64,000 nucleotides of DNA from Raillietiella orientalis (lineage: Eukaryota): contig JAYWIR010000050.1 in the NCBI GenBank assembly GCA_036172245.1, positions 620,001 to 684,000 on the forward strand. Direction: 5' to 3'. The notes under the pieces are model-generated. The model searched no databases. It had not been told where the DNA came from and worked only from the letters and a program-made list of their open reading frames with translations. This document shows, piece by piece, positions 2,688 through 63,150 of this stretch. The number at the start of each line of letters is the position of its first letter. Positions within the stretch are counted from its first letter, which is position 1. A program made the position numbers and the translations under genes.

Positions 2688-5209
2688 TCAGGCTCGAAGC
2701 AAAAACAAAAGAAGACATCCAAGTAAACTGCAGGTCAAAGTCCTGGAAAAAAAAAGAAAGAAAGAAACAGTCTACATCAAAAAGGAATCATCGGCAAGAA
2801 TCACAAGTTAATTTTCACAAATCTACTACTGTTATCATTTACAGTCCCATCAGATAGACCAACTTACCACTGCAACATCACAGCTGGGGTTGAGTGCCAC
2901 TTGGGATCATAGGCAACAGCCTTGTAGCATTGGTGACGTGAAAACATCTTAATAATCTCTTCACTCCTAGAAGGATTCTGCAATTACCATCGAGTTCTGT
3001 TCGTCATAAACTTACACGATTTAAAATTTCATTATTATTTTAAAGCAGCAAAGTATGCAGAAAGGCTCTTTGAATGAAAGAAAATCACGCTTTTTCACAC
3101 CCATACAAAAAAAAATCCTTTGCACCTAACATTCTCATTTCTGAGTCAAGAAAACTTCAGAAACACATATTATTGACTTAAGAAGAATTATAACTTTATA
3201 ATATAATTGAACTTTATTTGAAGCAAAAGCTGACAAGCTGATGTTTTTGTTTACCATTTTTGGGGAAATGGTGATGACCTACTTATCAAATAAACATATA
3301 AAAGGAGGTAGCTATGGTAACACGAATGGCTAAATAAAGGAAAAACTACTAACCCACGCTTTGAAGTAACAGCAACCATTACAGATCTCCAACTGATCTG
3401 TTGTACATCTACTGAGCCATGACGAGAAGCCAGTTGGGCAACCTAAGTTACAGACAGTCAACATGAATGAACCGATAATTATTACCATAAACATTTTCAC
3501 TCAAGTTAAACAGTAATTTTCTCTTAATATCTTTCATATTTGTTTGTGCATCTACTAATTCAAACATTATACAAACTAAGCATGCTTTACCTCTGATAAG
3601 TTAATGTGCTTCCAATATTTGCGTTGTACATACAGATACCATACTGAAGATTCAGGATCTGATCCATCCAAAGTCTAAATATGAGATAAAGAGGATGTGA
3701 GAAAGAAAAATTTCATGCCAACCAGATATTTTGTTGATCCACGAGGCAAATTTACTTTGCTTGAATGTTCTTGGATGGCTGCTAAACATTCTTGGAATGC
3801 CAACTGCCTATCACCTGTACACCTGAACACAACGATAAGTTACCCAAAGAGTCCTACATACTTGAGTGTTGATTTAGCTAACAAATACGCCATGCTAAGA
3901 AAACAACATCCAGTCATGTAAGCATCATAACCTGCCTCATGGGGTAGACTTTCACCTAAACTAAAGTGTGGTTACAACTGTGCAACACACATCATCTTAC
4001 CATAACGATCACTTTCTTCTGATAGCGTTACTCTGGGTGCAAAGAAGAGATCAGCATTGTTGAGAGGATCCATTACTTTGTAAAGATCGGAAAGAGAAGT
4101 AGGGCTTGATCCTGGAAAAATGCACTCAAGTTTTTTTTAATTCACAGCATTTCTTACTTAGAAATCCCTGTTCCCTGAGATGAGAAGCCATGTATTTGGT
4201 GTCAAACAGAATAGGAAACAGCTGATGCAGCTCACTCTTAAAACTAGCAAAATTTTCTGGAAATACACGAACAATGAAGCTGAAGGGAAATGCATCATAG
4301 CACCTGGGAGGGGATTGACAAATTGCTGGTAAAAGAGCAACATATCCAATAGACAATTATGACCAATAATAACCTTCCGTTCACGACTTAATAAATCAAA
4401 AATTTCAGAAACACCACGTAGATACGTAAGCAATTGGTGCTGAACCAGCTGTTTGTCTACTGAACAGCTATCTGGATTCTTAGTGACTAATAACTGTTCA
4501 CCGGACATGGATGTATTCAGTGCAGGAAAGTTCTGTTGCAACCGTAGTTGCAGCAAACAAGATAATAATTGTTCACGAACATCTAGGGTAAGTCTATCGC
4601 CTGAAACAGCATGTACATTCCACTCCACAACTTGGCTGTACAGTGTTTTGAACACTTTTTCTTCATCTATTCCAAGTGCACGCTCTGCATCAACTGTGAG
4701 AGCTGTAAGCATATCAGCAGCCTCAGTTTGATTCAGATATGGAATGCCATGATATGCCAACTAAAGGGGAATCTCATATTTCTATAGCACTAGCTCACCT
4801 TATTGAAATCAAAGTTATTCTTGCAGTGGAAATCAACCGTGGATGCTTGCCAGCAAAAACGGGGATCATGCGAAAGGATAGCTTTGGGTGATACATATAC
4901 ATTATAGGCATGTGCTCGAAAGTGATTTTTGCTACCACACACTTCTTCAAATGCACAGATGCCTAACTGGCAAACTATGAAGTGACGCATACCCAAACGC
5001 AATTTGTGATAGCAGGCTTGGGGTGAATCAAAAAGGCTGCAATGGGCTCTAACACTGATAGAAAATGATGGATTCTACCTTGGACGCATATTTTCATTAA
5101 TTCGCAATCCGGTAAATTCGGCATCCAAGGCAACAAAAACTGAATTGCGCAGCACTTTGAGAATCTCCGGAAGGTAGAAACTGAAATTTTCCTTTAGGAC
5201 GTCACACAT
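2688..5209 (-). CDS. PNLDC1: PARN-family (CAF1/DEDD) 3'-5' exonuclease, PNLDC1/Trimmer-like, multi-exon
   Basis: ATG at 5209: MCDVLKENFSFYLPEIL...VALDAEFTGL; then SLFDSPQACYHKLR, CQLGICAF, FDFNK/LAYHGIPYL, IIGHNCLLDML, LFDTKYMA, HEAGYDAYMTG (DEDDh residues intact). All introns GT-AG (e.g. 5037-5078, 4761-4798, 4257-4303). Last exon 2688-2742 encodes a hydrophobic tail WTLTCSLLGCLLLFLLRA*, which favours PNLDC1/Trimmer over PARN. Confidence 0.85.
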
Positions 5210-5315
5210 TGTGTTTTTAAATGTGAATCTAATAAAGAAACATGCTCAAAATGCAAAGGAATGGTGTTTTTCCCTCCCTTCCCACAGCTATATTTCCTAA
5301 TGCCACTTAAAAAGA

Positions 5316-5321
5316 TTTATT
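5316..5321 (-). promoter_or_regulatory. Polyadenylation signal (AATAAA) of the PITP gene
   Basis: AATAAA on the minus strand about 94 nt after the PITP stop codon. Confidence 0.65.
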
Positions 5322-5414
5322 ATGAGTATCATCTGCAAGAATGGTCAGGAGCAAACAGCTGCATTTGGAAACAACCAGCAAAACTTTGGAATGCACAGAC
5401 AGGGCTCTCCAGAT

Positions 5415-7092
5415 TTAGTCGGCACTAAACCCTTTGACAGCACCCTTAGTCAGTTGCTAGGGGAGAGAGAAATGAGCAGAAAGTGAAGGGCTGGGAAATA
5501 TAATAAGTACCTCTTCCAACTGTTTTCGAGTTTCTTCTTCCAGTTCTCTGATTTGTACCATTGTCATACCATACCACAAGTCCAAACTGCAAAACACCTG
5601 CCAAAACATGTTATGAATCGTGCTAATGTACAAACTTGTCTATGAAAAGTACAGAATAGCCTTCTTTCCTGCTTTTGGATGAACTCTTCCACACGGCTCT
5701 GCAAGCCAAACCATTTAAATTCTGTTGTGACTAGTTTATAACAGCACATCAATGGGGAAGTCTATGAAAGTTCAATAAGAGTAACTCTTATATTTGACTT
5801 ACCATTTTCATCCAATTTGGCTTCAGTGGTCCTCTACCTGATTTCACGGAATAGTACAGAGCTGGATCGTATTCCACACAGTAATCCCGACTGTCTACTG
5901 GGTCAGCAGCAATATCTATGGGCACAACCTCCCTCTGCTTAAGTGTTTCTGGATCAAGTTGGTGCACCTGCAAAACGAAAGCAAACAGATGTGAGTGCTA
6001 CATACAGGGCATAACCTACATTTTCTTGCTGGCCGTCATCATCAAGATGATATGTCTCAATCACAATATAAAAGCACTCCTTCATGTATCCTGGATTCTA
6101 ACAACCACACTTCAGTGTCCCATCATCCCTCATCAAGCACCCTACCGAGAGGACTGTTTTGCAGTAAGGATAAGCATTCCATGCTTGCTCATGGATTTCA
6201 AGTGCTCCTTTAGGAGCTAGCAACCGAATGAAAGCAGGAACTTTGCTGAAACAGATGAAATAGCACGTCAATGGTTACTGCAATTGCTAAGTTGTTCAAG
6301 GAGTTTGAAAGAGCATCCATGACTTTATCATACACATAATTGGCGAAACATAGATACCTGGCCAAATGATATATTTTATAAGTATATTGTCCTTTAGTAA
6401 ACATTCCATTTAACAGTGGATAATTATCGTATGGTTCATTCTTCAACACTTCAATACCTTCTCCACCTCCAGTGTTTTGCTTACTGGCTTCAGCTACACA
6501 ATGCAACTGAGCAACCTGGTACTAAAAAGAGATTGTTTTGAACAGGAAAAAATATTCAACCTAATTTATACTGGCAAATATCTCTTATAATTTCTTGAAA
6601 ATACTGCAATAGAAAATGCAACTTACGATGAAAAACTGAATTCGGTATACAAAAAAAAAAAAAAAAAAATTTATGAATACTCACTTCTTCCACCGTTAGT
6701 GGCATAACAATACGGCTGAAACAAAAACTCGGTTATAAAAAAGCATACAATAAATTATGAAGCTTTAAACATAGACTGGTTAACTTCTCTTTCCAGACTC
6801 AGTCTTAAAATTTTTTTGATTATAAACCAAGAATCTTAAAGTCCTATCTCTTAAAATACCCTGTAGCCATACATGATTACTCATAACAGTAAACACGGAA
6901 ATTCAAACTGATTTACTCATAAGTTCCCTAGGATCAATGCCTGGATCATAATAAAAATTACATCAGAGTCCTTGCTATGAAATAGCTGGACATCTGTGCT
7001 TCTCAGCATAATCATTTCAAATCACATAACTACTCCAACCAATGAAATGGGATATCATGCAAACTTCATACTTACTATTCTTTAATAAGCAT
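5415..7092 (-). CDS. Class I phosphatidylinositol transfer protein (PITP alpha/beta-like), multi-exon
   Basis: ATG 7092 [46 protein letters not shown]...[58 protein letters not shown]; ends [13 protein letters not shown] (TAA 5415-5417). GT-AG introns. Confidence 0.95.
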
Positions 7093-8319
7093 TGTATGTT
7101 AGAAAACATATAGTGAAGTACATTACAAGGTCACGTACAAAAGTGTTATCGTTCGGAAGATTTTCTCCTGATGGAATGGTCAGCACGAAAATTCTGCACA
7201 ATAAGAAACAACAATTACATAGAGGGTACATACTAACGTGTCTGACGGATAAATACACATTTTGATAATATTTTTTTTTTTTTGTTCAAGTTGACATTAC
7301 AAGCTGAAATTGCTGCGCTGCTTAACGTTCCGCAACGAGACATTTTTCCTTTGATTTGCACAATTTGAAAAGAAGCAGAAATACATTAAAAAATTAAATT
7401 ACTGTTTCGGTATTCCAAACCGAAGATGCTGATAGCTTAAAATTGCATATCACCCATTCTATGAACGAAACATAACGGCACGGCTCTCTACTCGGTGAGG
7501 CAATTCCGAGCCGTTGCGAGCGCAGCTTCCGCGAGCTTCGCGCGTGGAAGGGAGACGTGGAAAGCTGGCTGGCAGCCTACGGAGGCCAGCGGGGCAAAAA
7601 TCGAAGTTGCCCCCCGATAAATAGGATAAATAGAGCGCCGCCCCACCGCCGTCCCCCGGGCAAGCCACGGGCTTCCAAAACCGCCTCGGAGATCCACCCC
7701 AGGTGCATTCCCGCGACAGGGGCAAATCTCCGGTGGATAATCCATGGGAGACCCACACACTCCAAGCATTCCTTTCCCACCCCGGGGATTCCACGCCGAG
7801 TCAACCGGGTCGGGAATGATGTAGAAGGGGAGGGGGGAAAGTAAAGAATTCCACCACGTCACACCCGTCATCGATCTACGTGTAAGTTTCAGTTAGTGAA
7901 GGAAAAAAAAAAGAAGAAGAAGAAGAAATGCCTGTTAGCTATGTAGAGTCCTGCATAGCAATCCGTTTATCACGCATAAGCAAAGAAAAAGCCTTCGTGA
8001 ACTTGAGATGTTTCCAGATGCATCTGGAAACATCTCAAGTTTTAGTTGCACATGTAGGTAGCGAAGCAGCCTTCCCGGAAGATTCACTTTTCAGCCTCCC
8101 CTACAACAACTCCAATGGGGACGGTGCTTTGCTCCATCTACTTTCTCCTCGCAACTTATCTCTTCTCCTGTCTTTTTGGGATGCAGATAGAGGAGCCATT
8201 TGCTGCTTATTTAATTAGTGACGACGGGCAACTTGCACAGTATTCATCATGATTCTCGATGGTGAGCTAAGAGTGCAACGGCATAAAAGAACCGATAATC
8301 AAATGTTAAGCCCTATTTT

Positions 8320-8900
8320 ATGTGAACGAAAAGGTGAATGCTTGTGGTTGGTTTCCTTTAGCTTTCTTGCCTAGGATCGCACGAACAGCTTTTAAAAAGA
8401 AAAACTCTCGTCCCCGGGGGGTGAGACGAAATGCTCTTCGTACTGTTACATAGGTTGAGAGGAACCCCTCCTTCCCAGGTTTCTGGAAACTCTTACGACT
8501 CCTGCAAATTGCTTGCAAATCGTTACACGACGGAGTTCCACACGATTCAGGAGGAGAATGCCGATTTTGAAAACGATGGACCACAACATGTTGTTAACTT
8601 CAGCATGGAGTTCACGATGTTGAAAAGAATAAATCAACCACGCGGTCACGGCATTTTCCATTTTCTGCACGCAAATATCATCCGGTTCACATGCTGTTCG
8701 TGAAATCAATCCAGGCGGAGTGTGAGCTCTCGAGTCGAAGGTGTTCCGCCCATAGTAAAGTCCCCAATCAGAAGTTTCAAATGGAATTCATCAGATCGTG
8801 CTGCACCACCACGGGCACCTAAGCGTTTTGGGATCCCATATGTGATGATCTGAGAGAACACAACGAAACCAGCTTCAGTACACTAATGGTTGAGGGACAA
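8320..8900 (-). mobile_element. Decayed LINE reverse transcriptase remnant (CR1/L2/Jockey-like)
   Basis: Degenerate RT motifs in order on the minus strand: TYGIPKRLG (~GVPQGSxLGP), EPDDIC (~YADD), LLLNRVELRRV...FAGVVRVSRNL (~LNG..LE.V..FKYLGV). Confidence 0.45.
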
Positions 8901-10149
8901 CTCGGTGCCGCCCCCGCCAAATCATTTCTCCTCCTAAAATCAGACAGCAGACCTTCCGATTTTGTCGAGCGTCATTTTGTTGAACGGCAGGAATGGTTCT
9001 TCCTACTTGACTTGATTTCAGTTGACCGACTCCGATTCTAAATCTTCGCGGTTATTAAAAAGTTATGGCCATCCTGCCGCTCGTGTTCGTTTTTCCGGGG
9101 GAGCGAGGCCGGAAGGTGCTGACCAAATATGCGAGTAAGGACATCTGAATGTGGGGCCTGTCCACCCCACGTTCACACCGCATTGAGAGTTCATTCCCTC
9201 AAAACGAATGCAATTTTCGAAGCCCACTATAATTTCGTGCCACTCGAAAACGCTGCTATGGAGATTTGGCTTCACGGCTGGAGCTCGTTCACGGAAATGA
9301 GGGAAGAAGTTTCCCAACTTTCCCTAAAGTTTAAGATGTGTAGATGCAATTTACCTTCCCACGTTTCAAATTCCGTTTCTTTGAGTGGGTAGCAAATTCA
9401 CTAAAAAAAAAAAAAAAAACGTGATGAAAACAATCTCGCGTAGGGCTAACAGCAAACTGCAATTGACTAAGATTTTAGGACGAATCTCGAAGTTTGGCCA
9501 ACTAAAATGCAGGCTTTCGCATCTTTGTCCTTCCATTCATCGATATCGCGAAGTTACTGACATTCTAAATAGATAGAACCGATCGATTTGCTTTCAAAAC
9601 GACCACAAAATAGGGATGGCAGTTTACGTTTTTTTTTTTTTTTTCTTCCTGTTTCAGCTTGCGTATATTATTGAGTATAGGAAATGAATGCTAAAGTCGC
9701 ACTTTCATTCGTGGATGGCTGATAGATAGATTTTGGCATTTGCTCGTGGCTACTGATGCATCACTAACTGGTATACTAATAACTGTTTCAAACTGAAAGT
9801 GCTCAAATTCATAGCTCAGAGAGGCTGAACTTCATTTTGTCTGCAGCCGTGATTTAAGGCTTATCGTCTCCATGCTACCGCCGCCATCCATCAACTACTC
9901 ACTTATTATGGAAAACTGATGAATTAAATGAGAAGAAAAAAAAAAAAAAAAGACAGTAAATGAAATTAGAATGCTTTCTCAATTCAGGTGGTCAAAGAAA
10001 TGCCCGCTTTACGGCTGAATCACGTCAAATTATTCGCCTCGGAATTCTACATGTTTTTTGTCCTGCTTTGCAAAGAGGCCACACGTTCCTGGAAAACCAT
10101 GCTTAAGATGAATGGATTCAGAAGCAGCGTGGTGGAAAGTTGGAACGGG

Positions 10150-10680
10150 TTAACAGCAGTTTCGATAAAGTGCCACGTTCCTATCCCCACGATACCAAAA
10201 CCAGCGCAGTGAGGAGGCATCCTCGTTCTTCTCGAGGAGTAGTAGGGTCAAGGACCAAAATCGGTTACATGGGAATGGGAAGTCGCCGGGTCCTCAGCGT
10301 GCCCACTATGCGAGTCGCCAGCAGCCTTTCCGGCTACACGGCGTGTTAGGGGCATGCCGAGTTTGAGAGATGCCACAGGGCAAGGATACAACCGAGACCA
10401 TGCGAAAACAGGGATCGAGTGCAAACTGACACCGCATTCGGAGCAAAGGTCGCAGGATGGTTGGCTCCCGGGGAGAGCACGGGGAGCGCACCTCGACCTG
10501 CGTGCGAGTGACCCCCCATCCCACAGTTCGCAGAGCAGGCGTTGAAAGAATGAAAGCCCTCGAGGGATGGAACGAAGCGCTGCAGCCTCTTGCAGGGAAA
10601 GAGGGAGAGCCGGGGCAAACACGTCAGATTCGTGAGAACGCAGCAGCAGCAACGTGTGAACACTCGAAGGCACACATCAG
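10150..10680 (+). mobile_element. Possible decayed LINE ORF1 (gag-like zinc knuckle) remnant
   Basis: GC-rich block with broken Cys/His spacing (TAC*GHAEFERC...GSRGEHGERTSTC) like CCHC knuckles. Stops and frameshifts present. Confidence 0.3.
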
Positions 10681-11714
10681 GATTCTTACATTCGCTTTAC
10701 CTCCCAATCACACACACAACAACAAAAAAAAAAAAGACCTAAGCAGAATCTTTTCCGAATCGTCAACAAAAAGAAAAAAACACTTTTTCGTGTTGGTGCT
10801 TAGACGTGCATTTCGAGCATACTTTTTGCTGGAATCGAAAGTTCTTCCTTTGATTACTTCACACTTAGGTGCAAATCATTTCGTTTTCAGTAAGGAATCA
10901 TCATAAACTTGAAAGAACCGTTTATAATTAATTAATCCACAAAACAAAATATGATGAAAAGAGAATTATAGAAAAAAAAAAAAAAAAGGCATCAAATAAC
11001 CATTCCATCTCCATGGGAGTTGGGCGGGATGCCTGAAAGGGGACGACAGCAAAGGAACGGAACAGCCCCTTTTCTGAACAAATATTTTCGCAAGAAAAGC
11101 GCCGAAGAAGAACAAATGAAGTACAAGGAGGCAGATCAGGGTGCCGTTAACCACGAAGTGAGGTCGCAAGTGCTCACAATCAACCACCAGAAACGGCGAA
11201 AACCATAGAAACAAGGATGCATCCTTTGCTATCCTTGCTGGAAATACAACGTGCAGCTTTCTGGCTCCATTTTCGAAAAAAAAAACGACCAGGAAGATTT
11301 CTCTCCCTCTTTCTCTCTCTCTCTTTCCGTTCGTGTTTGCGAACAAAACGGAGGATCCCTTTCCTCCTGTTGAAATTCGACACCGTAACGTGAGCATGAA
11401 ATTCCACACTTAAACGGGCAAAAACTGAAACACTTCACCCGTAGAGATGCTGCTGCCTTCGTGAACACCCCCACCTGAACCACTCGTGGCCAGAGGCTGA
11501 ACCGAAATGGAAACCAGCCGTGTTTGCACGCTACCGCCTGTGGGATCAAAAACGCCAACGAAGATGGACACAAAGAGAAGACAACGTGAGCAATGGAATA
11601 GGCACCCGAAGACCCACGACGTGAGGGGATGATGGAAATCCTTTGGGGTTCTTTTCTGTCTTCGCTGTTTTTTCCCTTCCAGCATTTTTGTTCAGGTTTT
11701 TCAGGTTTTCTTTC

Positions 11715-12550
11715 TTTTTTTTTTTTTGGTTCGCTAAGTACCTCAAGAGCCGGTCGGGTGCCTCGCGGCGCACGTGGCTCTTTAACACTGTTCCACGCCA
11801 CCCGCGGAGGGTGCGTGTTATTCCTCAAGATACCCCGGAAGGGGGTCCGCCCCATGAATCCAGGAAGGCTTGGAGTCTGCTCCCCTCACGTTTGGGGAGG
11901 GGGATCGCACCCTGGTTGTCTCCGAAGGGGAACCCAGAAGGGAACCTCCTTCCTCATTCTCTCCGGAGGGACCCCTTCGGAAAAGGGGTGGTCCTCTCCA
12001 TTTCATCTTCTACTGAGGGAACTCGCAAGGGAACCGCTCCTCTTCACTCCTCTGAAGAGAACCCCGAAGGGACGCTTCCAATATTCAGAAAGGGCGCTGA
12101 AGCTTCCCGCAGGGGGATCGCTCCCGCTTGCTTCCTTGCACTCTTCTGGAGAGGCAGCGACTCGGAGGGTCCCCCCGCAACAGAGGGGGGTCCGCTCCTT
12201 TGAACAACTGGAGAGGTGCCCGTGAGGGCTCCTGATCCATCTTGAAACCGGAGGGGTCCCCCGGTGAGGGGGGTTCGCTCTCCGTTGCACGACAGGAGTA
12301 AGAACTCCCCACTCCTCTATTCCTGGAAGAATCCGAAGGTCGACTCCCGTCGTTCTGGCCTTCATCGGGGGCCTCCAACTTAAACGACCCCCGGTGCCAC
12401 GCTCGAATGTCTCGGCCAACCAGCGCCATTGCAGGAGAAACTCGGCACCCACCGACGCAGTGGCGTCAGAGTTTCTGCCGGAGTATTCGAACCCGCGACG
12501 CGTGGTGCCACACGCGGAAGCCTTAACCACAAAGCCTCCCGCGTGAGGGG
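11715..12550 (-). mobile_element. tRNA-derived SINE, copy B, with A-rich tail
   Basis: Minus-strand head has A-box-like GTGGTTAAGGC and B-box GGTTCGAATAC (12483-12493). Body aligns with 59900-60600. Ends in an A13 run (T tract 11715-11727). Confidence 0.75.
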
Positions 12551-14453
12551 AGAAACACGTCCGATGTTCAACCAGCTTTTTCCACCGAATGCATCGATCA
12601 GTTTCAGCGCTTCGGCACCCAATGACCTATATTGGCTGTGGACTTCATTCTGAATTCGAATACTGTCTTACATAAGACGAGGAGGTGTAGGCTACCATTT
12701 GGGTTAACAGCAGACTCAGGGGGAAAGCACTCGTTGCAAATGGTGTGCATCACGGTTTCGAACAGAGAAAGCCAAGTGGCATGAACCACACACACACCAA
12801 CCCCACTGACCCCACTTGAAAAGCATGAAAGTTGCAACTGAGCACTCTGGGGAGAGGAATCTGAATCTGGGTAGCATGGCACAATTCAACGCAAGGACCC
12901 TGGCGCTCAGGCCAAAAAGGGGGCGACGCATGCAAATCGACGTAATTTGCACCTTCTGAGACCGCTCCGAAGGAGGCCAAAAGAGCATGAGAAAGAAGAC
13001 AACGGTCTCGTCGCTCGCTACACAAGTTAACCGAAGGAGGTAATGGAATGGTCATAGTTCCAATCACGATGAAATTACTCAATTTTACATTTTCGGAATC
13101 AAAATTCGTTTTGTTTTTTTCCTACTGGATTAAATTGCATTTCATGTGAAAAACTCCCAAGGCAGGAACTTGCAAAAAATTCAACTGACACAACTGTAAT
13201 TTTTCCGGGTACAACGAAACTGCTAATGACAATGCATTTTTACTGTTTTAGTACTTTTGGTGCCATCATTGACATAAAGTCTGACCAAAAGCTCTGTATG
13301 TAAAGATGGAAAGAAATTCGGTTACGAAAACAAATCTGTTAAAGGAATTCCGAGTTTTGTAACCACATTGCTAGTAGCCAATTAATAGCTTTCAACATAT
13401 ATGGGGCCAAATGAAAAAGATTCCTGGCAAATTTGCAGAAGGCGAATGAGCAAAAATTTTGATGACAAAAAGTTGAGTGCCATTCATTAAATAATTTGGA
13501 CTTTCTCCTCAAATTATACAGAACTGAATTCCTGCCTCTCATTACAATCTAGGGAGCATCAACTAAATTAAGTATCATGAGGGGCACTGAAAATAGCATA
13601 TCAAATGTGACAATCTCTTTATTTCTGCACATAGCTTTCAAATCTTAAACCCATTCCGGAAAAAAGGATGGATCTTGCAAGTACTTTAATGTGGAAAATT
13701 GTAAAAAATTTAACATCCTTGGAACTACATAAAAACAAGAGAAACTGTATTCGACAGTAAGGCTACTAATTTTTCTCAGTGAAGAAAATAATTATCAGCT
13801 GAAAACAGATAGTATGAAAAATGATAATCAAACATTCCTGTTGCTTATAAAAGCATTCTGAATGGAGGGCAAGCTCATCACCATATTGATGTGATAAGCT
13901 CTTTTTTTAAAAAAGGTAAAAAAACATTTCAAAGTAAACACACTATTGGTGGATCACCTTACAAGCTCTTAACAGCATTCATTTATTTCTTATTCCATGT
14001 TTAACCAAACTTTCTGGCTTTCTTCTTAAACAGAGTACCACTAACATGCTTATGACAAATAGATCACAACATTTTTAACACTTCATCATGTGATCTTTAA
14101 AAGCTAAACCAAACTTTGTTTCTGCAAAAGTACTGAAAAACTCCGATTCTGAGATAAGTGAATGAAACTAAAACACATCCAAAAGATCAGCACACATATT
14201 GTCAAGATTGTCAGTAAAATCATCAGCTTCATCAGAACCATTACTAAGCTCATTACAAATGAGAAACACTTGATCAAATTCACTTTCCAATTAATAAATT
14301 CAAAAATCTGTCAAAACTAAAAAAATCAACCCATTTTTTTGTAACAAGACTTAAAATGAAAGGATTCGAATGCAATGAGCAAATTCATCAATAAAATAAG
14401 TTCAACGTAAAATGGTAAAATATATTTGCCTTCAAAATTGGTTAATGAAATCT

Positions 14454-17400
14454 TCACAGGTGACTTAGAAGCTCACTATACTCTGAATGTATCCTCTGCA
14501 GGTGACTGTTGCTGGAAATGATGTTCAGGACATCAAGCAGTAATTCATGTTTGGACCAATTCTGTTAAATATTTAGCATGAACAGCACAGACTGTAAAAA
14601 AATAAAATAAAATATACCAATATGCTGGGACTCCAACTTTTCTTGTCAAGTGAGTGAAACACAGGACCAAGGAGATCATCACAAATTTCTCGCAACTGGG
14701 ACTCAAGTCCTTGCTCAGTGAGGTATCGTACTAAAGTAAGTAGCCAGAAACGGTATTCTAAAGATGAACATAACTGCAAACTAGCTGCTATCTGGCAGTC
14801 CAAATAACTAATAGTTGCACATTCTTGGATAGCAGCAGTGGCTCGGAACACACGTGAATTTCCACCAACTCTGTGCTTTGTTTCTACTTGTGCTAATAGC
14901 AAAGGTAGATGATGCAGACTACCATGAGGCTGCTGTGTGACTATGGTTTGCTCAGCACTCAACTGAATGCTACTGCTACAGTCATAAAACAGCATCCATG
15001 TACGAAGACCCAGATGAAAGAAAAAAGCTTTCCCTGAAGAAAGACTGACTACAGGATTGCCCTGATCAGTCAGCCATGTTTTTATCACAGAAGTTTTGGA
15101 GCCAGCTAGAAACCAAAGACTGCATGCACAATAGAAACGACACTCCCATATTACCTTCAGCTAACTCTTTCAGAGTGTCTTTGGCAATGAGCTGCTGTGA
15201 CTTTAAATCCCATACATACAGATCTTGACATGAAGTCAACACCATTAGCATCCATTCCTTGACACACAGTCTTCCAGCTACACCATTAACCACTAAAGGA
15301 GGAAACAAACGCCTTCCACGATGGGTAAACACATGGATTGAACTATCCTGACATGCAGCAACACACACATGAAGGGAACCAACAATGGCACAAATGGGGG
15401 ATGATAACAACACTTGCCATATCACATGGCAATCCTTAATCAGATGTATACGGTGGACTGCTGAGGTTCCAAAAGAATGCACACCATTTTCTGCCTCCAA
15501 AAAGCCATTTGTTCCTGACAGCTGGATAGACATTCTACTGTCCAGTTTTAAGGCAGGAATATGCAATCCGGAAACTGGGGCTGACATCGTATTTTCATTT
15601 TGCAAAGGGACAATATTCATTTCTCTGACTGGAGATGCAGTTGTAGGAACTGCAGGTGCTTTGTATGTAATACGGCTTCTTTTTGCTGCACTCTTGGGAA
15701 CATCCTTCTCCGTATCATTCTTTCTCTTGGAAGAAAGGATATTCTGCTTTTCTTTGCTTATCTCAGGAGTTCCCTCATTCTGAATCCTAGACCCAGTTAC
15801 AATCTTCCACCAATTAATTTCTTACTTGTCTTTAATATGATTGGACGGAAGATCCTGAACAGCTTTTTTCTCGAAAACAGGAACAACAGGATTAGTTGTT
15901 CCTTCATCTTGATGCTCAACATGAATCTTGCTGCGGGATTCTGTGAAACTACTGAAGCTTGCTGCTTGTGTAGTTGCAAATAATGAGTTTCCTACACTGA
16001 ATTCAAATTGTATTGATGAAAATTATCTATATAATCTACCCTTTCTCCATTACAGGAGGGATAAACACGGGAGTAATACGCCGACGTCCATCAGCTGTGC
16101 GAGTCTCTATCTGTTTATCCAACGGTCCTTTGATAATTTCAGTCTTATTTTCACTGGATGGCAATAAATCTTTTTGCTCTTCTATGCTCAAGCGTCTACG
16201 ATTCTCTTGGATCTTCAGGAACTCGGGATTTTCAATTAGCACATCTTTTAGATTTGAAGTGCCATCAAGTAACGCTAGAGATTTTCCATAAAGGCGCTGA
16301 TGAACTCCAATCTGATACAGTGACTCAGTTTACTGTTGTGAAAAACGGATTACCTTTTCTTCAGGAGAAAGAGATTTTCCTAATTCCTCCTCTGTGAATT
16401 CAATATAAGCAATAGTACCATCCCAAGAACAAGCCAACAATTCAGTTCCATACATGCTCCATGTTAGATCCAATATCTTAAGAGATACAATAATTTCTCG
16501 ATGAAATCGACATTGTACTAACAGAATTTGAAAATAATTCCTGGATAACAACTAGCGGCCGTTTAAGTGCAGTTAGCCATACAGAGATTGTTTTGTCTCG
16601 AGATCCAATAGCACAGCAACAGTAACTCTGGGTTTTATTTGATTTTCGTCTGATATTCTGTAGAATAGTGGGACAAAATCTCTGAAACAGAATGGCATCA
16701 CGAACCAAGGCGAAATGTAATCTTACAACACAAGTAACAGCTTTACGATGGCCAACAAAATCCTTATCACTTCTCCAGCCAGCTCGTTCGATAATCTGTG
16801 CAGTGGGAGCACCATTATTCATACTGTGTGCAGACACGAGATACTGTCCATCTGGAGACCAATTCAGTCGAAGAACATGAGTTGTACCTCCACACTACAA
16901 TGAAACAAAGGCATTCATATCACTACAGCCATATGTTATGATACCTCAGAAAAAGGCTCAACAATATTTCGCTCCTGTTTCCAGTCAGCAGTTCTCCAAA
17001 TTTTCAATGATTTATCGTCCGACTGACTAGCTAAATATTTGCCAACAGGATCCCAAGCAACACCCTTCACCAAACTAGAATGACCTTGGAGTGTGGTTAT
17101 TTGTTCTGAAAATAATGCACTTATATGAAAAAAATCAAGAAATACATACCTGGCCACTTCAAAGCATTCCAAACAATAATTGTGTTATCTATAGAACAAG
17201 AAGCCAACCAAGCATTGTGAGGAGACCATGCTAAGTCTAGAATGTCTCCTGCATGTCCACGTAGTGTAGCAACACATTTCCATGATTCCACTATGATCAC
17301 TTTGCTGCCAAAAACTTGTGAACCTGTTAAGCAAACAAATAACATTATCGATACTCCACAGACATACCAACTGAACTACCACTTAGTTGCCAGATCATAA

Positions 17401-20400: not shown

Positions 20401-20433
20401 ATGGTGCACCCAAGTAGGTTTCAAAAGCTTCAT
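14454..20433 (-). CDS. HIRA: Histone H3.3 chaperone HIRA, multi-exon
   Basis: ATG 20433 [52 protein letters not shown]40 repeats ([39 protein letters not shown]); B-domain [16 protein letters not shown]-terminal [13 protein letters not shown]...[11 protein letters not shown]; stop TGA 14454-14456. Confidence 0.97.
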
Positions 20434-29039: not shown

Positions 29040-30780
29040 ATGTTCAGGCAGAACACATGGTTCTGCCTGTCTTGATACACTTGCCGTTGCAGGCCCGCAG
29101 GTCTCTGAGGTCCTCTCTGAAGGCGATGGGGAAGGAAAAACCACAAAGAATAAACAAAAATACAAACAAAGAAAAAAACCGAGGGGAGGGAAATGTTTTA
29201 GGGGAGGGGGAGGGCTGGGAAGGGATCACTGTTCTCCCCGAGTGGTCCTCTGCATCCTGTTCAGGGTTCGGACAACTGTCGGTCGTAAAGTTCTTAACCG
29301 GGGCCATCGGGAAGCTTTCTCAATGTTGAGAGCCGCACAGTGAATGGCGTTGCGACTGTTATGGCCTCTCCTGGACACAGTCCATTTCTCCAGGATCCCG
29401 CGTGTGTAGCAGTTCTCTGCTACACACGCGACTGCTGGCAGGGCGTTCTGCATCAGGAGGCGTCGGAAAATGTCCTTCGGGTCGCCCCTGGGAATGTACA
29501 AGATCGACGATAGTCGATCCCACATGGGTCGGAGGGAGGTACACTCGATGATGAGGTGGGGGAAGGTCTCCCGTTCCCCGCACCCTGCACAATTAGCATC
29601 CACAGTCCCTGATGTCCAATGGAAGAGGCGTGCTTTGCAAAGGAGTCTCCAATGCAACACCAGCATCTCCGTCTCCTGTCATTCCAGGGAGAAGGTGCGA
29701 CTATCCCAACGCGCTGGCGGTCACTTCACCTCCTCTGGAGGTATGCCCAGCAGCTCGCCCCAGCGCACAATTCCTTTAGACGTGATGCTCGGGGTCGTAG
29801 CGTCCGCTGACTCCCGAGTCGTCCACGCCTTCAGCGGATTTCCCCTTCCTCGGATGAGGCAGGACACTCCCCACAATGCTCGCTCGTTGCTGTTCCTAAT
29901 GTTCTTGAGGGAGGACAGCACGGGGGCAAGGGGGGTCAAAGAGGCCCACAGAAACTTCCGCCGGTTGTTGATTATCTCCTGCAGGGGCTGTCGAGCGTTG
30001 AGTCCTCGACGGAGACAGTTGTGCTCCGCCTCGCTCGAGCCGTTGATCTTGGCGCACGCGGAAACTGACTCCTGAAGCCAGGCAGTGCAGTTCGCGGGGA
30101 GGCAGGAGATCGAGGTATTCTCCCTCATGAGGGCGACCATCTGGCCACAGTTGTTCAGGCTGCGCTGGTATACCATGAAGATCGAGGACAATCCGTCGCA
30201 GCTGGTCCCTCTGCTGGCGAGAAGCCGTGCGGGTTCGCACCAAGACCTCATCCAAGACATCGCCGCAAGGGCGAGTCTTCTGAATTGGAGCTGCCGCTCC
30301 ATGCGCTCCATCGTCAGGAGGCCCAAGCCACTGTCTCTGCATGGAGCGCACATGTCTTTTAATCGGACACGAGACCTCCCTGTGCCCCAAAGGGCTTTTC
30401 TTAGGAGGACCTCGGTCCTTCGTTTCATGATCGGTGGAGGGGGCAAACAAAAAGTAGGGGGCGAAGGAGAGGGGCCGCGAAAGTGTTCCACACCGCGTTC
30501 CGTTCCGGCAAGTAAAACTTGCTATTCTAGGTCAGGCCGATCGCCAATTCCACCTTTTGTGGACGGTCGGAACAGGCTTTTGCAACGCAGAGGTCCCCTA
30601 ACGGAACGCCGAGGTACTCGATGCACCTGCCCGTGGGGATCCCCAAGCGGATGCAGTCCGGCCGTCCGCCCCACGACGTATTAGATGGAGGTATTGAGGC
30701 TTTCTCCTTGTTCACTTCCAGGTCTGTCCCACGGCGGAACAGCTCAAAGACTTCACCATTGTTAGGACTCATAGCCAAGG
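29040..30780 (-). mobile_element. 5'-truncated Tx1/L1-like non-LTR retrotransposon, copy 1
   Basis: RT thumb LEVNKEK, IEYLGVPLG; KALWG...MCAPCRDSGLGL (~FLW...P...GGLG); C-terminal zinc motif CAGCGERETFPHLIIEC; C-rich then T-rich 3' UTR. Stops and frameshifts, so inactive. Confidence 0.85.
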
Positions 30781-33101: not shown

Positions 33102-35480
<2,379 letters not shown>

Positions 35481-35524
35481 AATCATTGCTAGGCCTATGC
35501 ACTGAATGTTACAATGTAAAGTAT

Positions 35525-35530
35525 AATAAA
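35525..35530 (+). promoter_or_regulatory. Polyadenylation signal of ARF6
   Basis: AATAAA 44 nt after the ARF6 stop. Confidence 0.65.
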
Positions 35531-35557
35531 CAAACTGGGATCACAGACATCATATTT

Positions 35558-38437
35558 TTAAATCTTTGAAAGGTTTCTTTGAAGCAAAGTCAACATGATG
35601 GGATATATAGGAGCAAACTGTTCTCGTTGCAAATGTCGACATAATGATGTGTACCTCTCTAAAGCACCAGTAATCAACTGCAATCTCTGTTGTTCATCTG
35701 GATGTTCATCCAGCCAACGACTATATCGGGCTATTGACCATTTAGTTAGCTCATGGGGAGCTTGCAATTCAGTGGGAGCTTGGGCAAATAATAGATGAAG
35801 CAATAAGCTAACAGGCACTTGAGTTCCAACGTCTGGATTTGAAAGGATCTGGTCACCAGTTTGGAAAAGTAGTGGTTTGAAGACTCTCAGTGATTGGAAT
35901 ATAGCACCTGCTGACATGCTTGGTGAACATGCTTTTATGAGTGCTGCCTCCAACTACACCAAGAGTAACTTTCGTGTCATTGATATAACTAACCTGAGAA
36001 AAATCCGCAGCCAGCTGCTTGCATCCTCCTTCTTGCAATGGTCTAATTAAACAAATATGACGTAGAAAAAGTTCAATTACTCTGTTTATCAAAGGCAGCC
36101 TTAATCTACAAAGCTCTTAAAGTGCCATCAGTTCTGTTTTCCCCAGACATACTTGTTTATCACAATTTCTGATTCACCCATGGGGATAATGTAATCTTTT
36201 ATTGCTCGGAGCAAAAAATCTCTTAGTTCTTGCATATAAGGGGAACAAAGGCGACCAGTGTCCGTCCACTCTCTGAAATCTTCCTTGTGCATTGTAAGAA
36301 GAATAGTTTCCACTGTTTCTTGCAAAGAATGCAAGAGTGGTTGCACAATGTGGACAACTACACCATGCAACTTTTCTAAAGACTCTGTCACAACAATATT
36401 GCTTAGCTGATGCTCAAAATGGCACAAAAGGTGAACTAGTTTAGCATTGCGGGCTTGGCCCGCTGTTGGAGGACCTATAGAGAATTAGGAGTCATTATAA
36501 AATGCAGCAACCTACCAATAACTTGGGTTGCTTCCCCACTGTTATCTGTTGCTTGTTCACATTTAGTACATAAAAGTTGAACAGTCTTTTCTACATTGTG
36601 CATAAGTGCAGTTTTAAGTCCATTATCTATACATTCAACTTTCAACTCCCTAATTGACCAACTGTACGTTAGCTTTCCTTGATGGATTCTCTGGACTCAC
36701 TTTTTAATGGTATTTACAAGCCTTTGCACTTCCTCCATTTCTTTGATAGTGTCCAGTTCAGCAAATATCATGTTGACACTGTCAAATAATTGTGATAATG
36801 AATGGGATAAGTATGCCTGTTGATAAACACCCAACAAGGCCTGAAGATCTTTATCAGCAGTATCAGACTCAAGCAATTCATAAAATACTTGTAGCTTTTT
36901 CCATAGATTTTTAAAAATATGTAATAACTTAGGGTACTCATTTTCAAAGGTCTGCTTCAAATATGGAGAATCTATAGAGAATATCATTAACATCCCCACA
37001 AAATCATTTAAGAGGATTACCTTGAGTTGCTTGTTGGAACATACAGCTAAGCAGTTTCAACATCTGTTTCCAAACATTCAAAAATAAGTTTGCATTAAAA
37101 ATATCTGCAGTTCCTTCCTGCAAACCAGGATGTTTCAATGCTTGAACCACTTGTACAATTTGGTTTGTGCTAGACAGCAGCTGTTGAACCAAGTGTTCTA
37201 GATTTGTCCACATAGAGGAAGAAAAACTTAGCACACTAGCAGAATTCGATACAACTACTCTTCCTGGACCTATTCTCTATCATTTCTCAAAATATTACAT
37301 GTGTATAAAATCACCAGATGCTACACCAAGAACATGAGGAACCAGCTGCAGATTAAAAGTTCGTTTTGAGTGCATTTCCAATTCAATCTGGATATCTTCC
37401 AATATCTTAGTAATCACCTGATACAGAGTATCCAGGCATTGTGCTGACTGTAAAGCTGTAATAATCTATTCAAAGTATGCAATGCTGGTTAAATTGCATT
37501 TTTATGTTACTTGATTCTGATTATTTTTAAGTAACCCTTCATTAAGCAATTGTTGTATGTCCTTAATAATGTCCTCTTTAACCCTCTCTATGAACTGCAA
37601 CTCATGCTGTACCACACAGATATCTGCCAAATCTACATCTTTACAAATCTGATCTGGAACCCAGAAATGATGCACAGAAGATGATATCTTACTGAGCTCT
37701 TGAAGAACTTGAGCTATCTTCAAAATATCTTGATTATCATAGCTCAAAAGACGATTCAAATGTTTAAACAAATGTAAGATGCTGGCAATCCTTCTCACTG
37801 AATTGCAAGTTTCCTGGAGATGTGTCAAGACTTGAACTTGTAACTTCAGTTGTTTATATGGCTGATAAAGTTTAACTTTCAACTGTATAGCAGATTTATT
37901 CAAAGCCTAAGCAAATTTCCATTAGTATACGTTTTATCTTATCAAAATACCTTTGACTGCATTTGTAATGTTTTCACATCACAATCTAATCTTTGGATAT
38001 TTTCTACTGAATTTAACAGATTGTCGAAATATGTATCGGTATATTTATGCAACTCTTTGTCCAGTACAGCTATTCCTGTAAACACATACGGAAATAAAGT
38101 ATTTTATTTTCAAATTCATGAGCACATCTTTTTTATATTTACCTTTATTTAGGGAATTAATAACTTCAGAAGCAGATGAATGTTGCAATACGCTCTGAAC
38201 TTCGGTCTTTAAATTGAAATCCTCATTTATGACATGGAGAAGGCTATCTGAAATGAAAAGCTAAACCAATTGAGTGCATTATTCATTGCCATGACTTACG
38301 TTAACATGCGTGTGCAATAAGTACATTCATTTGGAGTGTATTTCACATAAAATATATGGCAATTTCTTACCGTTTTCTTTTAGCAGTAAGTTCCTTATTT
38401 TGTTTTTCACTTCTTCTGGGTCGTTCTCTAAATCCAT
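35558..38437 (-). CDS. COG5: Conserved oligomeric Golgi complex subunit 5, multi-exon
   Basis: ATG 38437 MDLENDPEEV; GIAVLDKELH; HLQETCNSVRRIASILHL; GPGR...SMWTNLE; SPYLKQTFENEYPKLL; ETILLTMHKEDF; CSPYMQEL; LFLRHICLIRPLQEGG...LAADFSQ; WSIARYSRWLDEH; FAPIYPIM; stop 35558-35560. Confidence 0.93.
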
Positions 38438-56891: not shown

Positions 56892-57980
56892 CCGGCCCGC
56901 CTCCTCGCCAGGCGTGCATCCGGAACCGGAGGACTTGCATCTCTTCTTTTATGTCGTGGAAAGAAGATAAGAAGATGCGGCCTTCTCCTCGGTCGAGTAG
57001 CCACCCTGGCGAAGGAGAATGCGCTGATGATCTGCAGCCCCGTCAACTCCAGCGCATGGCTGGAAGAAACAGTTGGCACGTGGGCGGTAGTGAATCAGAG
57101 GAGCCACGAGAGGTGGAATAGCCTGGGACGCCCGCTGCGCTCTACGCGAGATCCTGGAGTGTCCAGCCAGGAGCACGTGGGCAGAGACGACCCGCCTAGC
57201 GACGGTGCTACCCTTCCTACGGAGGGACCTCGTCAGCAGCCGGACGCCGAGGTGGCAAGTCTCTTGCCGTATCGCAGGCAGAGAAAAATTGTTGAGCGGT
57301 TGGACAAGGGGACAGCTGACGGACGCCACAACCCATAGCATCCTTCCGCAAGGACTAAAAAAATGGGGCGAGCTGCCCGGCATCACGACGGATGACCTGA
57401 AGTGGCCCCCAGTGATAACCGAAACGAGAATCCTTCCCCTAAAATGGCAGGAGTCGGCGCTGATGCTGTTGCACTGGGGACTCCCCTGCAATGCACGCCG
57501 TCATCACTGGACACGGGGAAGTGTGAACCCAAACTGTGCCCGGTGTGGGGAGCGGGAAACCCTCCCGCACCTTTTAGTTGACTGTGCTGCCCTCCGGCCC
57601 CTGTGGGAACGCTTCGGTTCCACCTTAGGGATCCTGGAAGGTAGCCTTCCCAGAGACGTTTTTCGGCTCCTCTTCGTGCGGGACGCCCTGCAGCCAGCCG
57701 CTGTCGTAGTAGGTCTCAGCTGCGTGCGCGGTATTGTGGCAGCTTGGAGTGGATCCGACGAAGCAGAGGATGTTAACAGAAGGAATGCCATGGAGTATGC
57801 AGCTCGCTTTCTGCGAATAGCATCCCGATGGCCCCACCTGGGAAATCTGTACCAGGACCTCGTCGGCATCCTGCAAAGGATTTAAGCTCCACGCAACGGA
57901 CAGTGATCCCTTCCCGGCCCTCCAACTGACAAGTGTTTTTACTTTTTCTTTTTTTTTTATTTTTGTTTTTCCCCAACCCC
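56892..57980 (+). mobile_element. 5'-truncated Tx1/L1-like element, copy 2
   Basis: PARLLARRAS...LAKENALMICSPVNSSAWLEE aligns with copy 1 (PARLLASRGT...MRENTSISCLPANCTAWLQE); KWGELPGI...KWPP; CARCGERETLPHLLVDC; ASRWPHL; stop 57883-57885; same 3' UTR motif as copy 1. Confidence 0.88.
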
Positions 57981-60600: not shown

Positions 60601-62609
60601 TCGCTCTCGTTTCTGAGAGGGAAGGCGATTTTTTTCTTTTTCCTTTACCCTGAGGGCACCTTCACGTCCAAATCTCGCAACCCGCCGTCGGGCCCCCATG
60701 CTAAGCAAGGGAGCACCCCGAGCCCCTCTCGAAGCCTCCTGCAGTTCCACTGCTTGGCAGTCCGATCTGTGGGGTTCGTCCCTTTTTTTCCTTTTTTCCT
60801 TGCCTTGCTTTCGCAGCTTCCGCGTCCTCCACTTCACCCGTCCGTCCGTGCGTTTCCCTCCTGCTGCCCACGTCGCCTCCCTTGATTATCCCGTCACTTC
60901 TTCCGCGTTCCACTTAAATCGAGCGCTTGCGGCTTGAACGACAAGCTCCATTCCCGTGTCTTTCCCGCCTGTGGTGGTGTGCGATCCGCGCTGCATTTCT
61001 TCTGCCCCCGATACTTACCCGGCCCTAATTGGACCCGATGGCTTCCTCCCGGCTGGTCCTGCAGCTCTTGTTTGTTCGTGGGCGTCATGGGTTACCGGCG
61101 ACGGTGGATGAAGAAGAATGCGAGCGCGGGGGCCGGAGGTATCGGGGGAGGAATGAAGGAAAGATCGGCACGAGACGGAAGAGGTTGGTTAGGAAAGCAG
61201 GGGGAGGTCTGGGACGCGTTTAAGGGCATGCGGATTTTCGTAAGTAAACAGAGGAGAGGCAGGGTGCCCTCCCTCCGGTTGGAGCGGCAGAAAGGAAGAA
61301 GGAAAGAAAAGGAATCTGGAAGCAAGCGGGAGAAGGAAGGAATTTGTGGGTGCTTATCTCCAAGGGCAGCGAAGGAGCGAAAGAGATTCGTGCTTATTGG
61401 ATTAACGCAACAGCACTATGGGGGAAATAAAATGCAGTTTCCGCTTCGCCAGGACAACTGCTTTATTTCAGCTCTCGAGCTCCACCTCGGATCTCGTCGC
61501 GAGGGAATCCTCGGTTCGTTTAATTTCGCCGGATGAGAGTAGCCATAGGGATTAATGGCGGTTGATGTTCTGCGTCGGGTTTACGGAGGGCCTTGCTTTC
61601 AGCACGTGCTCCATCTTCCAGCTGCACCCACGTTGAAGCATCCATTGTGCTGTGGCGCCGGGAACAGTCCCTCAGACTCTTCTCTGATGCGCCCAAGTTC
61701 TCTTGGATGTTCATGCAGTTGGCGCCATCTCCCTATTCCCGAAGTGCTTCCATTTTCTTTCTTGTGTGTGTTTTTTTTTCAAAGAAAAATCGCATGTGAT
61801 TTTGCCATCGATCATCCCCTGCGCTGAGCGCCTCTGGAACATTGGGAACGAGAGCTGCCTGGCTGTTCTCGGCAAAGGGATAACTGCCCTGGCAGCCAGC
61901 TCCTTGATTTTCCCGGCAAGCCCCGTTCTAATCCAAGCCCCGTTCCTCCTTTCGGCATTCGCGCACTTTTCCGGATTTCGGAAAAACCATCCTTCCCGCC
62001 AAAATGAACCGCACGTCGTGTAAACACAGCGGCGTTCCGCCGACCACGGGGGGAACAAAGTTGCCGTCATTTTCTACATTTATTCATTTATTTATTCTCC
62101 TATGGGAATTCCACCAACCATTCCTGCCAAAAGTTCGCGATCGATTCCCACAATAATCCATCTCGACTTTATAGGGATGACGATGGAGACTTCTTAAACA
62201 CTGAATGGCGTTTCAAATTTCCGCTCTTCTCGTAGCAAAGATTCGCGGTCCTCATTTGGTTTCAGAGCCACCTGGACTTGGGCGTGGCTACCACAAAAGC
62301 ACGAAGCCTCTTCCCACCCACCCCTTTATCTCTGAACCTCTGAATTTTCTCACACCTCAGTGTCTTCGTTAGGCGGGAGGCAAATTCTTGGAGATCCTCA
62401 GTCGTTTTCTGAGCAGCCCCCAAGGTCTCTGCTCGCACGAGATTTGCCATCCCTCTTGGAACGCAACCATTCGTCTTCCCTCGCATCTCTTCCGCGGCTC
62501 CACCCCCACGCGAGCTCTCTCTCCGGGGAGAATCTCGGAAGCATTTCCCCCCTCCCCCTTTCTCGCCTCTTTATTTTTCGTCTTTTACCATCTTCCAGAA
62601 GCCGTGCGA

Positions 62610-63150
62610 ATTCGCCGCAGATCACCCCTCTGGAGAGTTCCATGTTGGACTGCAGCGCCCTGGAGGACTTGTGGCGGCGACCCGCTTTGGCGCTCCTCAG
62701 ACAACCGCAGGACACCGCTTTGGACTTGCTGCGACGCCTCTTCGCCGGAGGCTGGCTGAAAAAGGGTGCTGAGATGATCTCAATGAGACGTTGCATGACA
62801 GCAGCCACTTGTTGGAGTCAGGTTCGCGGCGAAGAGAGGCCACCAGCATGGCAGAAGATCCCCATGAGGACAGCAGCAAGGTGGCCAGACGAAGTGGCCA
62901 GGGAGATCGCCACCGTCAAGAGTCGCTTCTGGAACGTTGAACCAAAGACCCCTATCCCAACCCTCCTTCCTGCCTTTTTTAATGTATCCATTGTCCGCTC
63001 CCTCGGTTCCCTACTTTTTGGAAGCCCAAAGTTCTGCGTGCCAGTGGTGAACCTCAAAGAACGTCTTTTTTGTGCGTTTTGGCATTTCTTGTTTCTGAGA
63101 GATACCCTTCCTTCCCTCTTCCTTGTGGTTTGTTTTTTTTTGAAATAAAC
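62610..63150 (+). mobile_element. Tx1/L1-like 3' fragment, copy 4
   Basis: MLDCSALEDLWRRP...ALDLLRRLF...RTAARWP, then a C-rich motif (GACCCCTATCCCAACCCTCC) and T-rich tract as in copies 1 and 2. Confidence 0.7.

Follow-up and report, generated by a model that had tools for sequence, protein, structure and literature searches.

The window analysed here is a stretch of 64,000 nucleotides from Raillietiella orientalis (assembly GCA_036172245.1, contig JAYWIR010000050.1, positions 620,001–684,000 of the forward strand), and all positions given below are numbered within it. Six genes were identified by Pfam scans of the open frames together with tblastn searches using HIRA homologues. The minus strand carries Trimmer (5209 to 2688), PITP (7092 to 5415), HIRA (ATG at 20433, end near 14457), PISD (about 27000 to 26250) and a COG5-like gene recognized by a weak match (from 35561), and the plus strand carries ARF (ending at 35477). 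PITP is followed directly by Trimmer, with the PITP stop codon (TAA, 5417–5415) and the Trimmer start codon (ATG, 5209–5207) enclosing a gap of 205 nt (5414–5210). A first-pass annotation of the same DNA had placed the gap, the AATAAA hexamer, the acceptor AG and the ATG at the coordinates used here, and all of these were exact when we re-read the minus strand; both genes are intact and the signals lie where they are given below. The remaining same-strand neighbours in the window (HIRA to PITP and PISD to HIRA) are ∼6–7 kb apart, and the 205 nt gap between PITP and Trimmer is exceptional within the window.

A search with an exon of HIRA returned 1539 relatives; among the best 120, the named matches were all from arthropods with one exception, at ∼57–69% identity, the sole non-arthropod named match being a bullfrog protein with 44% identity. 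The animal looks to be of arthropod affinity and crustacean-like. In the HIRA open frame at 16481–16894, an in-frame segment of ∼15 codons is seemingly extra with respect to insect HIRA and may be an in-frame mini-intron. The PISD exon matched bacterial clusters only in the protein atlas search. ARF (plus strand) and the gene with the weak COG5_C match (minus strand) appear to lie tail to tail with ∼80 nt between their ends (35477–35561; the stops are approximate), and the first exon of ARF was not found within 33600–34960. Long open frames in CpG-rich DNA are present on both strands at 57094–57882, 29200–30500 and 62300–63150; one of them has a weak zf-RVT match (E = 3e-4, below the Pfam cut-off), which suggests decayed LINE-type retroelements. 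Pfam scans of the frames of 1–2300 and 7459–13121 gave zero domains, while Rfam gave 0 matches over the whole window and no spliced-leader RNA gene was seen there.

The coding part of PITP (5415–7092, minus strand) comprises nine exons (7092–7076, 6715–6685, 6521–6358, 6245–6146, 6097–6020, 5967–5803, 5761–5636, 5597–5511 and 5456–5415) that encode 269 residues. All eight introns are of the GT–AG type and the spliced frame is open. Four of the exons match the Pfam family IP_trans with E values of 1e-12 to 1e-16, covering profile positions 17–221 of 246, and the model starts at the usual N-terminus of the family. On this evidence, PITP is a complete class I phosphatidylinositol transfer protein gene. 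A mini-intron of 40 nt is predicted in its 5′ UTR (7194–7233, minus strand), with a donor at 7233 (6.0 bits) and an acceptor at 7194 (5.4 bits) that is the sole AG to reach 2 bits within 300 nt upstream of the PITP start codon. This predicted pair resembles an ordinary mini-intron of a 5′ UTR, whereas the acceptor in front of Trimmer is without such a partner. The region upstream of PITP (7100–8000, minus strand), which is presumed to contain the promoter, is CpG-normal, with an observed/expected (o/e) ratio of 0.67–1.53 in 150 nt windows. A perfect 42 bp palindrome, formed by two 21 nt arms with zero spacer, is found at 8000–8041 in the CpG-normal DNA upstream of PITP. At the other end of the gene, the 3′ UTR predicted from the sequence (5302–5414, minus strand) extends from the stop codon to a CA located 15 nt past the AATAAA.

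The coding part of the downstream gene, PNLDC1/Trimmer (2688–5209, minus strand), comprises 11 exons (5209–5079, 5036–4799, 4760–4304, 4256–4158, 4111–4001, 3955–3862, 3822–3723, 3674–3591, 3442–3354, 2966–2868 and 2742–2688) that encode 518 residues. Pfam CAF1 was matched by four of the five exon or open-frame stretches that were scanned, with exon 1 corresponding to profile positions 1–33 from residue 4 onwards. A search with exon 2 returned 228 relatives, and in the full-length ones this exon aligns at residues 45–122, as in our model. Residues 1–517 of the model align end to end with six homologues of 527–545 residues (blastp E values of 3e-70 to 2e-100), although the identity is only 31–34%. 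The strongest match (E = 2e-100) was to a protein from Limulus that is annotated as trimmer-like; Asterias, Xenia and Glandiceps contributed PNLDC1-like proteins with E values of 1e-87 to 1e-94. Four of the five cluster names that were looked up read ‘PNLDC1-like’ or ‘pre-piRNA 3′-exonuclease trimmer-like’, and the fifth cluster is nameless. The closest relatives with solved structures are PARN. The D-x-E, H-N-x-x-x-D and H-E-A-G-Y-D blocks align with those of all six homologues; we take these acidic blocks to be the DEDD catalytic set, with residue roles as in PARN. The last exon encodes a hydrophobic C-terminal tail that aligns with hydrophobic tails in the same six proteins, and a C-terminal hydrophobic membrane anchor is a trait of PNLDC1/Trimmer that is absent from PARN.

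We identify the downstream gene from these features as an intact PNLDC1/Trimmer orthologue, and the ATG at 5209 as its conserved start. Since this ATG corresponds to the conserved N-terminus, a hidden upstream coding exon is not needed. Word-index protein searches with exons 1 and 3 of Trimmer gave no match among longer proteins. A metagenome locus that came up in a scan with exon 2 was rejected as spurious, with only 8–9 matching residues and otherwise no resemblance to either gene. PNLDC1/Trimmer is a germline piRNA enzyme in other animals, and by extension from them it would be expected to have a germline role in the present animal.

Within the gap, the AATAAA poly(A) signal (5316–5321, minus strand) is located 94 nt past the PITP stop. 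It is followed by a likely cleavage region (5281–5302, minus strand) containing the CA (5302–5301), 15 nt past the AATAAA, and a GU-rich TGTGGG (5286–5281). A hexamer followed by a CA and a GU-rich block is the canonical layout of an animal poly(A) site. With its AATAAA, the CA 15 nt further on and the GU-rich block, the spacer has what appears to be a normal poly(A) site, which we count in favour of an operon. Further towards Trimmer, a pyrimidine tract and TAG form a candidate trans-splice acceptor, TTTCTTTATTAG (5229–5252, minus strand; 6.6 bits). Its AG (5230–5229) lies 85 nt past the AATAAA, 72 nt past the CA and 19 nt before the Trimmer ATG. The 19 nt that would remain as the genomic 5′ UTR after the addition of a leader (5210–5228, minus strand) contain zero ATG and place an A at position −3 of the start codon.

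Splice sites were scored with matrices built from the 18 GT–AG introns of the PITP and Trimmer models. The 6.6-bit acceptor beats 14 of the 18 real acceptors (leave-one-out range −2.5 to 13.0) and is the best AG in the 205 nt gap as well as the one nearest to the ATG. Acceptor-like sites scoring 6.6 bits or more turn up 2.27 times per kb on the minus strand and 1.88 times per kb on the plus strand; the chance of finding one is ∼8% within 40 nt of an ATG and ∼35% anywhere in 205 nt. Among 1276 minus-strand windows of 205 nt, 182 (14%) contain an AATAAA. The single motifs in the gap are not significant alone, and it is their combined layout, together with the exceptional spacing of the two genes, that stands out.

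The observation in the first-pass annotation that the acceptor has no convincing donor was borne out. Scored with the full model, the GTs between the AATAAA and the acceptor reach 1.9 bits (5306), 1.5 bits (5285) and 1.2 bits (5241), all weaker than the weakest of the 18 real donors, which range from 4.1 to 9.9 bits. The acceptor at 5230–5229 is good, and a credible cis partner is absent downstream of the poly(A) signal. The only GT of the gap in the range of real donors is a donor-like site of 4.8 bits (5367–5375, minus strand) in the PITP 3′ UTR before the AATAAA; sites as strong as this one occur at 4.7 per kb, which is compatible with chance. The introns of PITP and Trimmer are short, 12 of the 18 measuring 38–54 nt and the longest 387 nt. 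Two of the 18, intron 7 of PITP and intron 7 of Trimmer, begin with GTTTGT or GTTGGC. HIRA also has a pyrimidine tract with a moderate TTAG before its ATG (AG 20446–20445, 3.2 bits, 11 nt from the ATG), the sole candidate donor for which is weak (20498, 3.1 bits, giving a 54 nt intron); this site could serve as a leader acceptor or close a mini-intron in the 5′ UTR.

The CpG content of the spacer was compared with that of the start-site regions of PITP and HIRA, which were the only comparators used (ARF, PISD and COG5 were left out). The 205 nt before the Trimmer ATG contain 0 CpG, with 7.4 expected, compared with o/e values of 1.15 before PITP and 0.82 before HIRA. Over the 500 nt before the ATG, the o/e is 0.20 for Trimmer, 1.32 for PITP and 1.10 for HIRA. 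Along the minus strand the ratio is ∼1 from 8000 to 7100 and 0.0–0.5 from 7100 to 5226, bar one bump of 1.0–1.5 around PITP exon 2 (∼6800–6576), and it is back to ∼1 below 2750, just past the Trimmer stop. The CpG-poor block as a whole thus reaches from ∼7100 to ∼2750, and Trimmer exon 1, immediately next to the CpG-free 205 nt, forms a small CpG-normal island inside it. The earlier claim that the spacer, unlike the 5′ ends of other genes, is free of CpG therefore holds against the CpG-normal regions upstream of PITP and HIRA. By its CpG content the spacer resembles gene body more than promoter.

We propose that PITP and Trimmer form an operon resolved by spliced-leader trans-splicing, a reading whose chances of being right and of being wrong we judge to be evenly balanced. 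One transcription unit comprising PITP and Trimmer would be driven from the CpG-normal region upstream of PITP (∼7100–8000), with RNA polymerase II passing through both genes. The PITP message would be cleaved and polyadenylated ∼15 nt past the AATAAA, near 5301, and a capped spliced leader would be joined to the downstream RNA at the acceptor AG (5230–5229). The product would be a Trimmer mRNA with a 19 nt genomic 5′ UTR. That the two genes are co-transcribed, that the acceptor is used and that a leader exists are inferences from the arrangement of the signals. The first-pass annotation had offered the same operon or, as a variant, a shared first exon. The operon retains the support of the tight spacing, a plausible poly(A) site 72–87 nt before the acceptor, an acceptor with no usable donor and a CpG-free spacer; the shared-first-exon variant came out weaker. 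The further statement of the first-pass annotation that either arrangement would couple a lipid-transfer gene to a piRNA nuclease reads too much into the locus; the partners in nematode operons are mostly unrelated in function.

The gap of 205 nt is, on the other hand, large enough for a compact promoter. PITP and Trimmer might then be two ordinary packed genes, with Trimmer transcribed from a compact promoter of its own that lies in the gap and overlaps the PITP 3′ end, its mRNA starting at ∼5230–5300. We consider this unlikely, but well short of negligible. The best argument for a local start site is the CpG content of Trimmer exon 1 (5079–5209, minus strand), a local CpG-rich patch with 7 CpG and an o/e of 1.26, compared with 0.35 for the pooled later Trimmer exons (Poisson P = 0.004); in the HIRA gene body, only one of 75 windows reaches an o/e of at least 1.2. 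This patch could mark an own start site that is unmethylated in the germline. A TATA-like AAATATAG (5295–5288) and an Inr-like CCATTCC (5264–5258), which lie 30 nt apart (5258–5295, minus strand), would suit such a promoter, but both were matched by eye and fit the consensus motifs only weakly, and the complete lack of CpG in the gap, set against the upstream regions of PITP and HIRA, argues against a promoter there. The pyrimidine-AG would have to be either a chance match in an unspliced 5′ UTR, acceptor-like sites this strong occurring ∼2 times per kb, or the end of a ∼57 nt mini-intron beginning at the weak donor 5285. Mini-introns of 38–54 nt are common here (12 of 18), so a 57 nt 5′ UTR intron from the GT at 5285 is geometrically possible, but every one of the 18 real donors scores higher than this one (1.5 bits). 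If the leader were unspliced and began at 5262, it would include an upstream ATG at 5243, which is a minor objection because the PITP 5′ UTR also has upstream ATGs, and a start upstream of 5285 would coincide with the PITP cleavage site. An operon and a separate Trimmer promoter are not mutually exclusive, because C. elegans has hybrid operons that contain internal promoters. The separate promoter would also agree with the status of crustacean operons, which are unreported for copepods and amphipods according to one source (PMC7986045).

Cis-splicing might instead allow the two genes to share a promoter. A first exon that lies upstream of PITP, codes for no protein and ends at donor 7233 or further up would then be joined either to 7194 or, skipping PITP, to 5229, an arrangement that we regard as distinctly improbable. 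A good donor is available at 7233 (6.0 bits), with more donor-like sites in the CpG-normal region upstream of PITP, and the acceptor at 5229 has no nearby partner. Joining the two would, however, require an intron of ∼2.0 kb, compared with 38–387 nt in all 18 local introns; donor 7233 is already matched by an acceptor 40 nt away, and transcription would have to bypass a poly(A) site of normal appearance.

Failure of PITP 3′-end formation, giving a bicistronic read-through RNA that might be spliced from 5510 or 5375 to 5229, with Trimmer translated inefficiently or the acceptor serving by-products only, could draw on the real exon 8 donor at 5510 upstream of the acceptor and on the donor-like site at 5375 (4.8 bits), but it is very improbable, since translation of a second cistron with neither a leader nor an IRES is rare in animals and the intact, conserved 518-residue gene argues for a dedicated route of expression. 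The small share of probability left over falls to explanations of some other kind. A PITP–Trimmer fusion protein was considered and rejected: exon 8 of PITP (5511) spliced to 5228 runs into a stop after three codons, and PITP itself ends in TAA.

Operons resolved by spliced leaders, as proposed here for PITP and Trimmer, have been described in nematodes, tunicates, flatworms and chaetognaths and in a small number of further groups. Those of Ciona intestinalis, Oikopleura and the chaetognath are the closest in kind among non-nematode animals, being resolved by a single leader class. The cistrons of Ciona operons are typically separated by few nucleotides or none, and the present junction is not of that type: its spacer is 205 nt long, and signal and acceptor are 85 nt apart and not merged. 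In Drosophila, packed tandem genes and dicistronic loci either have their own promoters or give true dicistronic mRNAs that carry no leader. The PITP–Trimmer pair resembles these in consisting of same-strand arthropod genes less than 300 nt apart, but differs in that its spacer is not CpG-normal, as the other promoters of the window are.

The SL2-type operons of C. elegans and other rhabditine nematodes are like the present locus in that the genes are on the same strand and the upstream gene keeps its poly(A) signal. From poly(A) signal to acceptor the distance is ∼100 bp in C. elegans (PMC1657053), compared with 85–87 nt here. Genes highly expressed in the germline are more frequent in C. elegans operons than would be expected (PMC1657053), a further likeness in so far as Trimmer may have a germline role here. 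The C. elegans operons belong to another phylum, and the present genome differs in its pattern of gene-body CpG depletion. In the chaetognath, a spacing of less than 250 bp likewise marks genes as candidates for an operon, and leader reads validated 1,470 of the 2,151 gene sets spaced in this way (PMC12460157); we take this proportion as an approximate base rate for an animal that uses leaders. The chaetognath genome is described as being without gene-body methylation (PMC12460157), which sets it apart from the present locus, where both gene bodies are CpG-depleted. On this ground, and because the named HIRA matches among the best 120 are arthropod with one exception, a chaetognath origin of the window was rejected.

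Copepods and amphipods resemble the present animal as arthropod lineages with leader trans-splicing, if a leader is used here as proposed. In copepods, spliced leaders are documented and are added at a 5′ UTR acceptor; the word ‘operon’ is absent from that paper (PMC4664967). Amphipods are listed among the users of spliced leaders in PMC7986045. The genome paper of the amphipod Parhyale describes the trimming of leaders off reads and leaves operons unmentioned (PMC5111886). The difference lies in the operons themselves: for copepods and amphipods, operons and polycistronic mRNAs are stated to be unreported (PMC7986045). A literature search for a later report of copepod or amphipod operons, with subscription journals outside its scope, found none.

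The operon reading of PITP–Trimmer is plausible but unproven, and the main value of the junction is as a well defined test locus with exact coordinates. The wider picture, which we hold tentatively and put slightly short of an even chance, is that of a crustacean-like arthropod with nematode-style operons (a poly(A) signal, ∼90 nt and a leader acceptor), with PITP–Trimmer among them and Trimmer made only as the leader-spliced downstream cistron of a housekeeping gene. If true, this would be a class of operon so far unreported for any arthropod, and its host genome would be one whose gene bodies are still depleted of CpG. Should such pairs truly be co-transcribed, arthropods would join the list of animals with operons, adding a further and probably independent origin of operons in animals. 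An enzyme of the germline piRNA pathway would then be run from a promoter belonging to a lipid-transfer gene in broad use.
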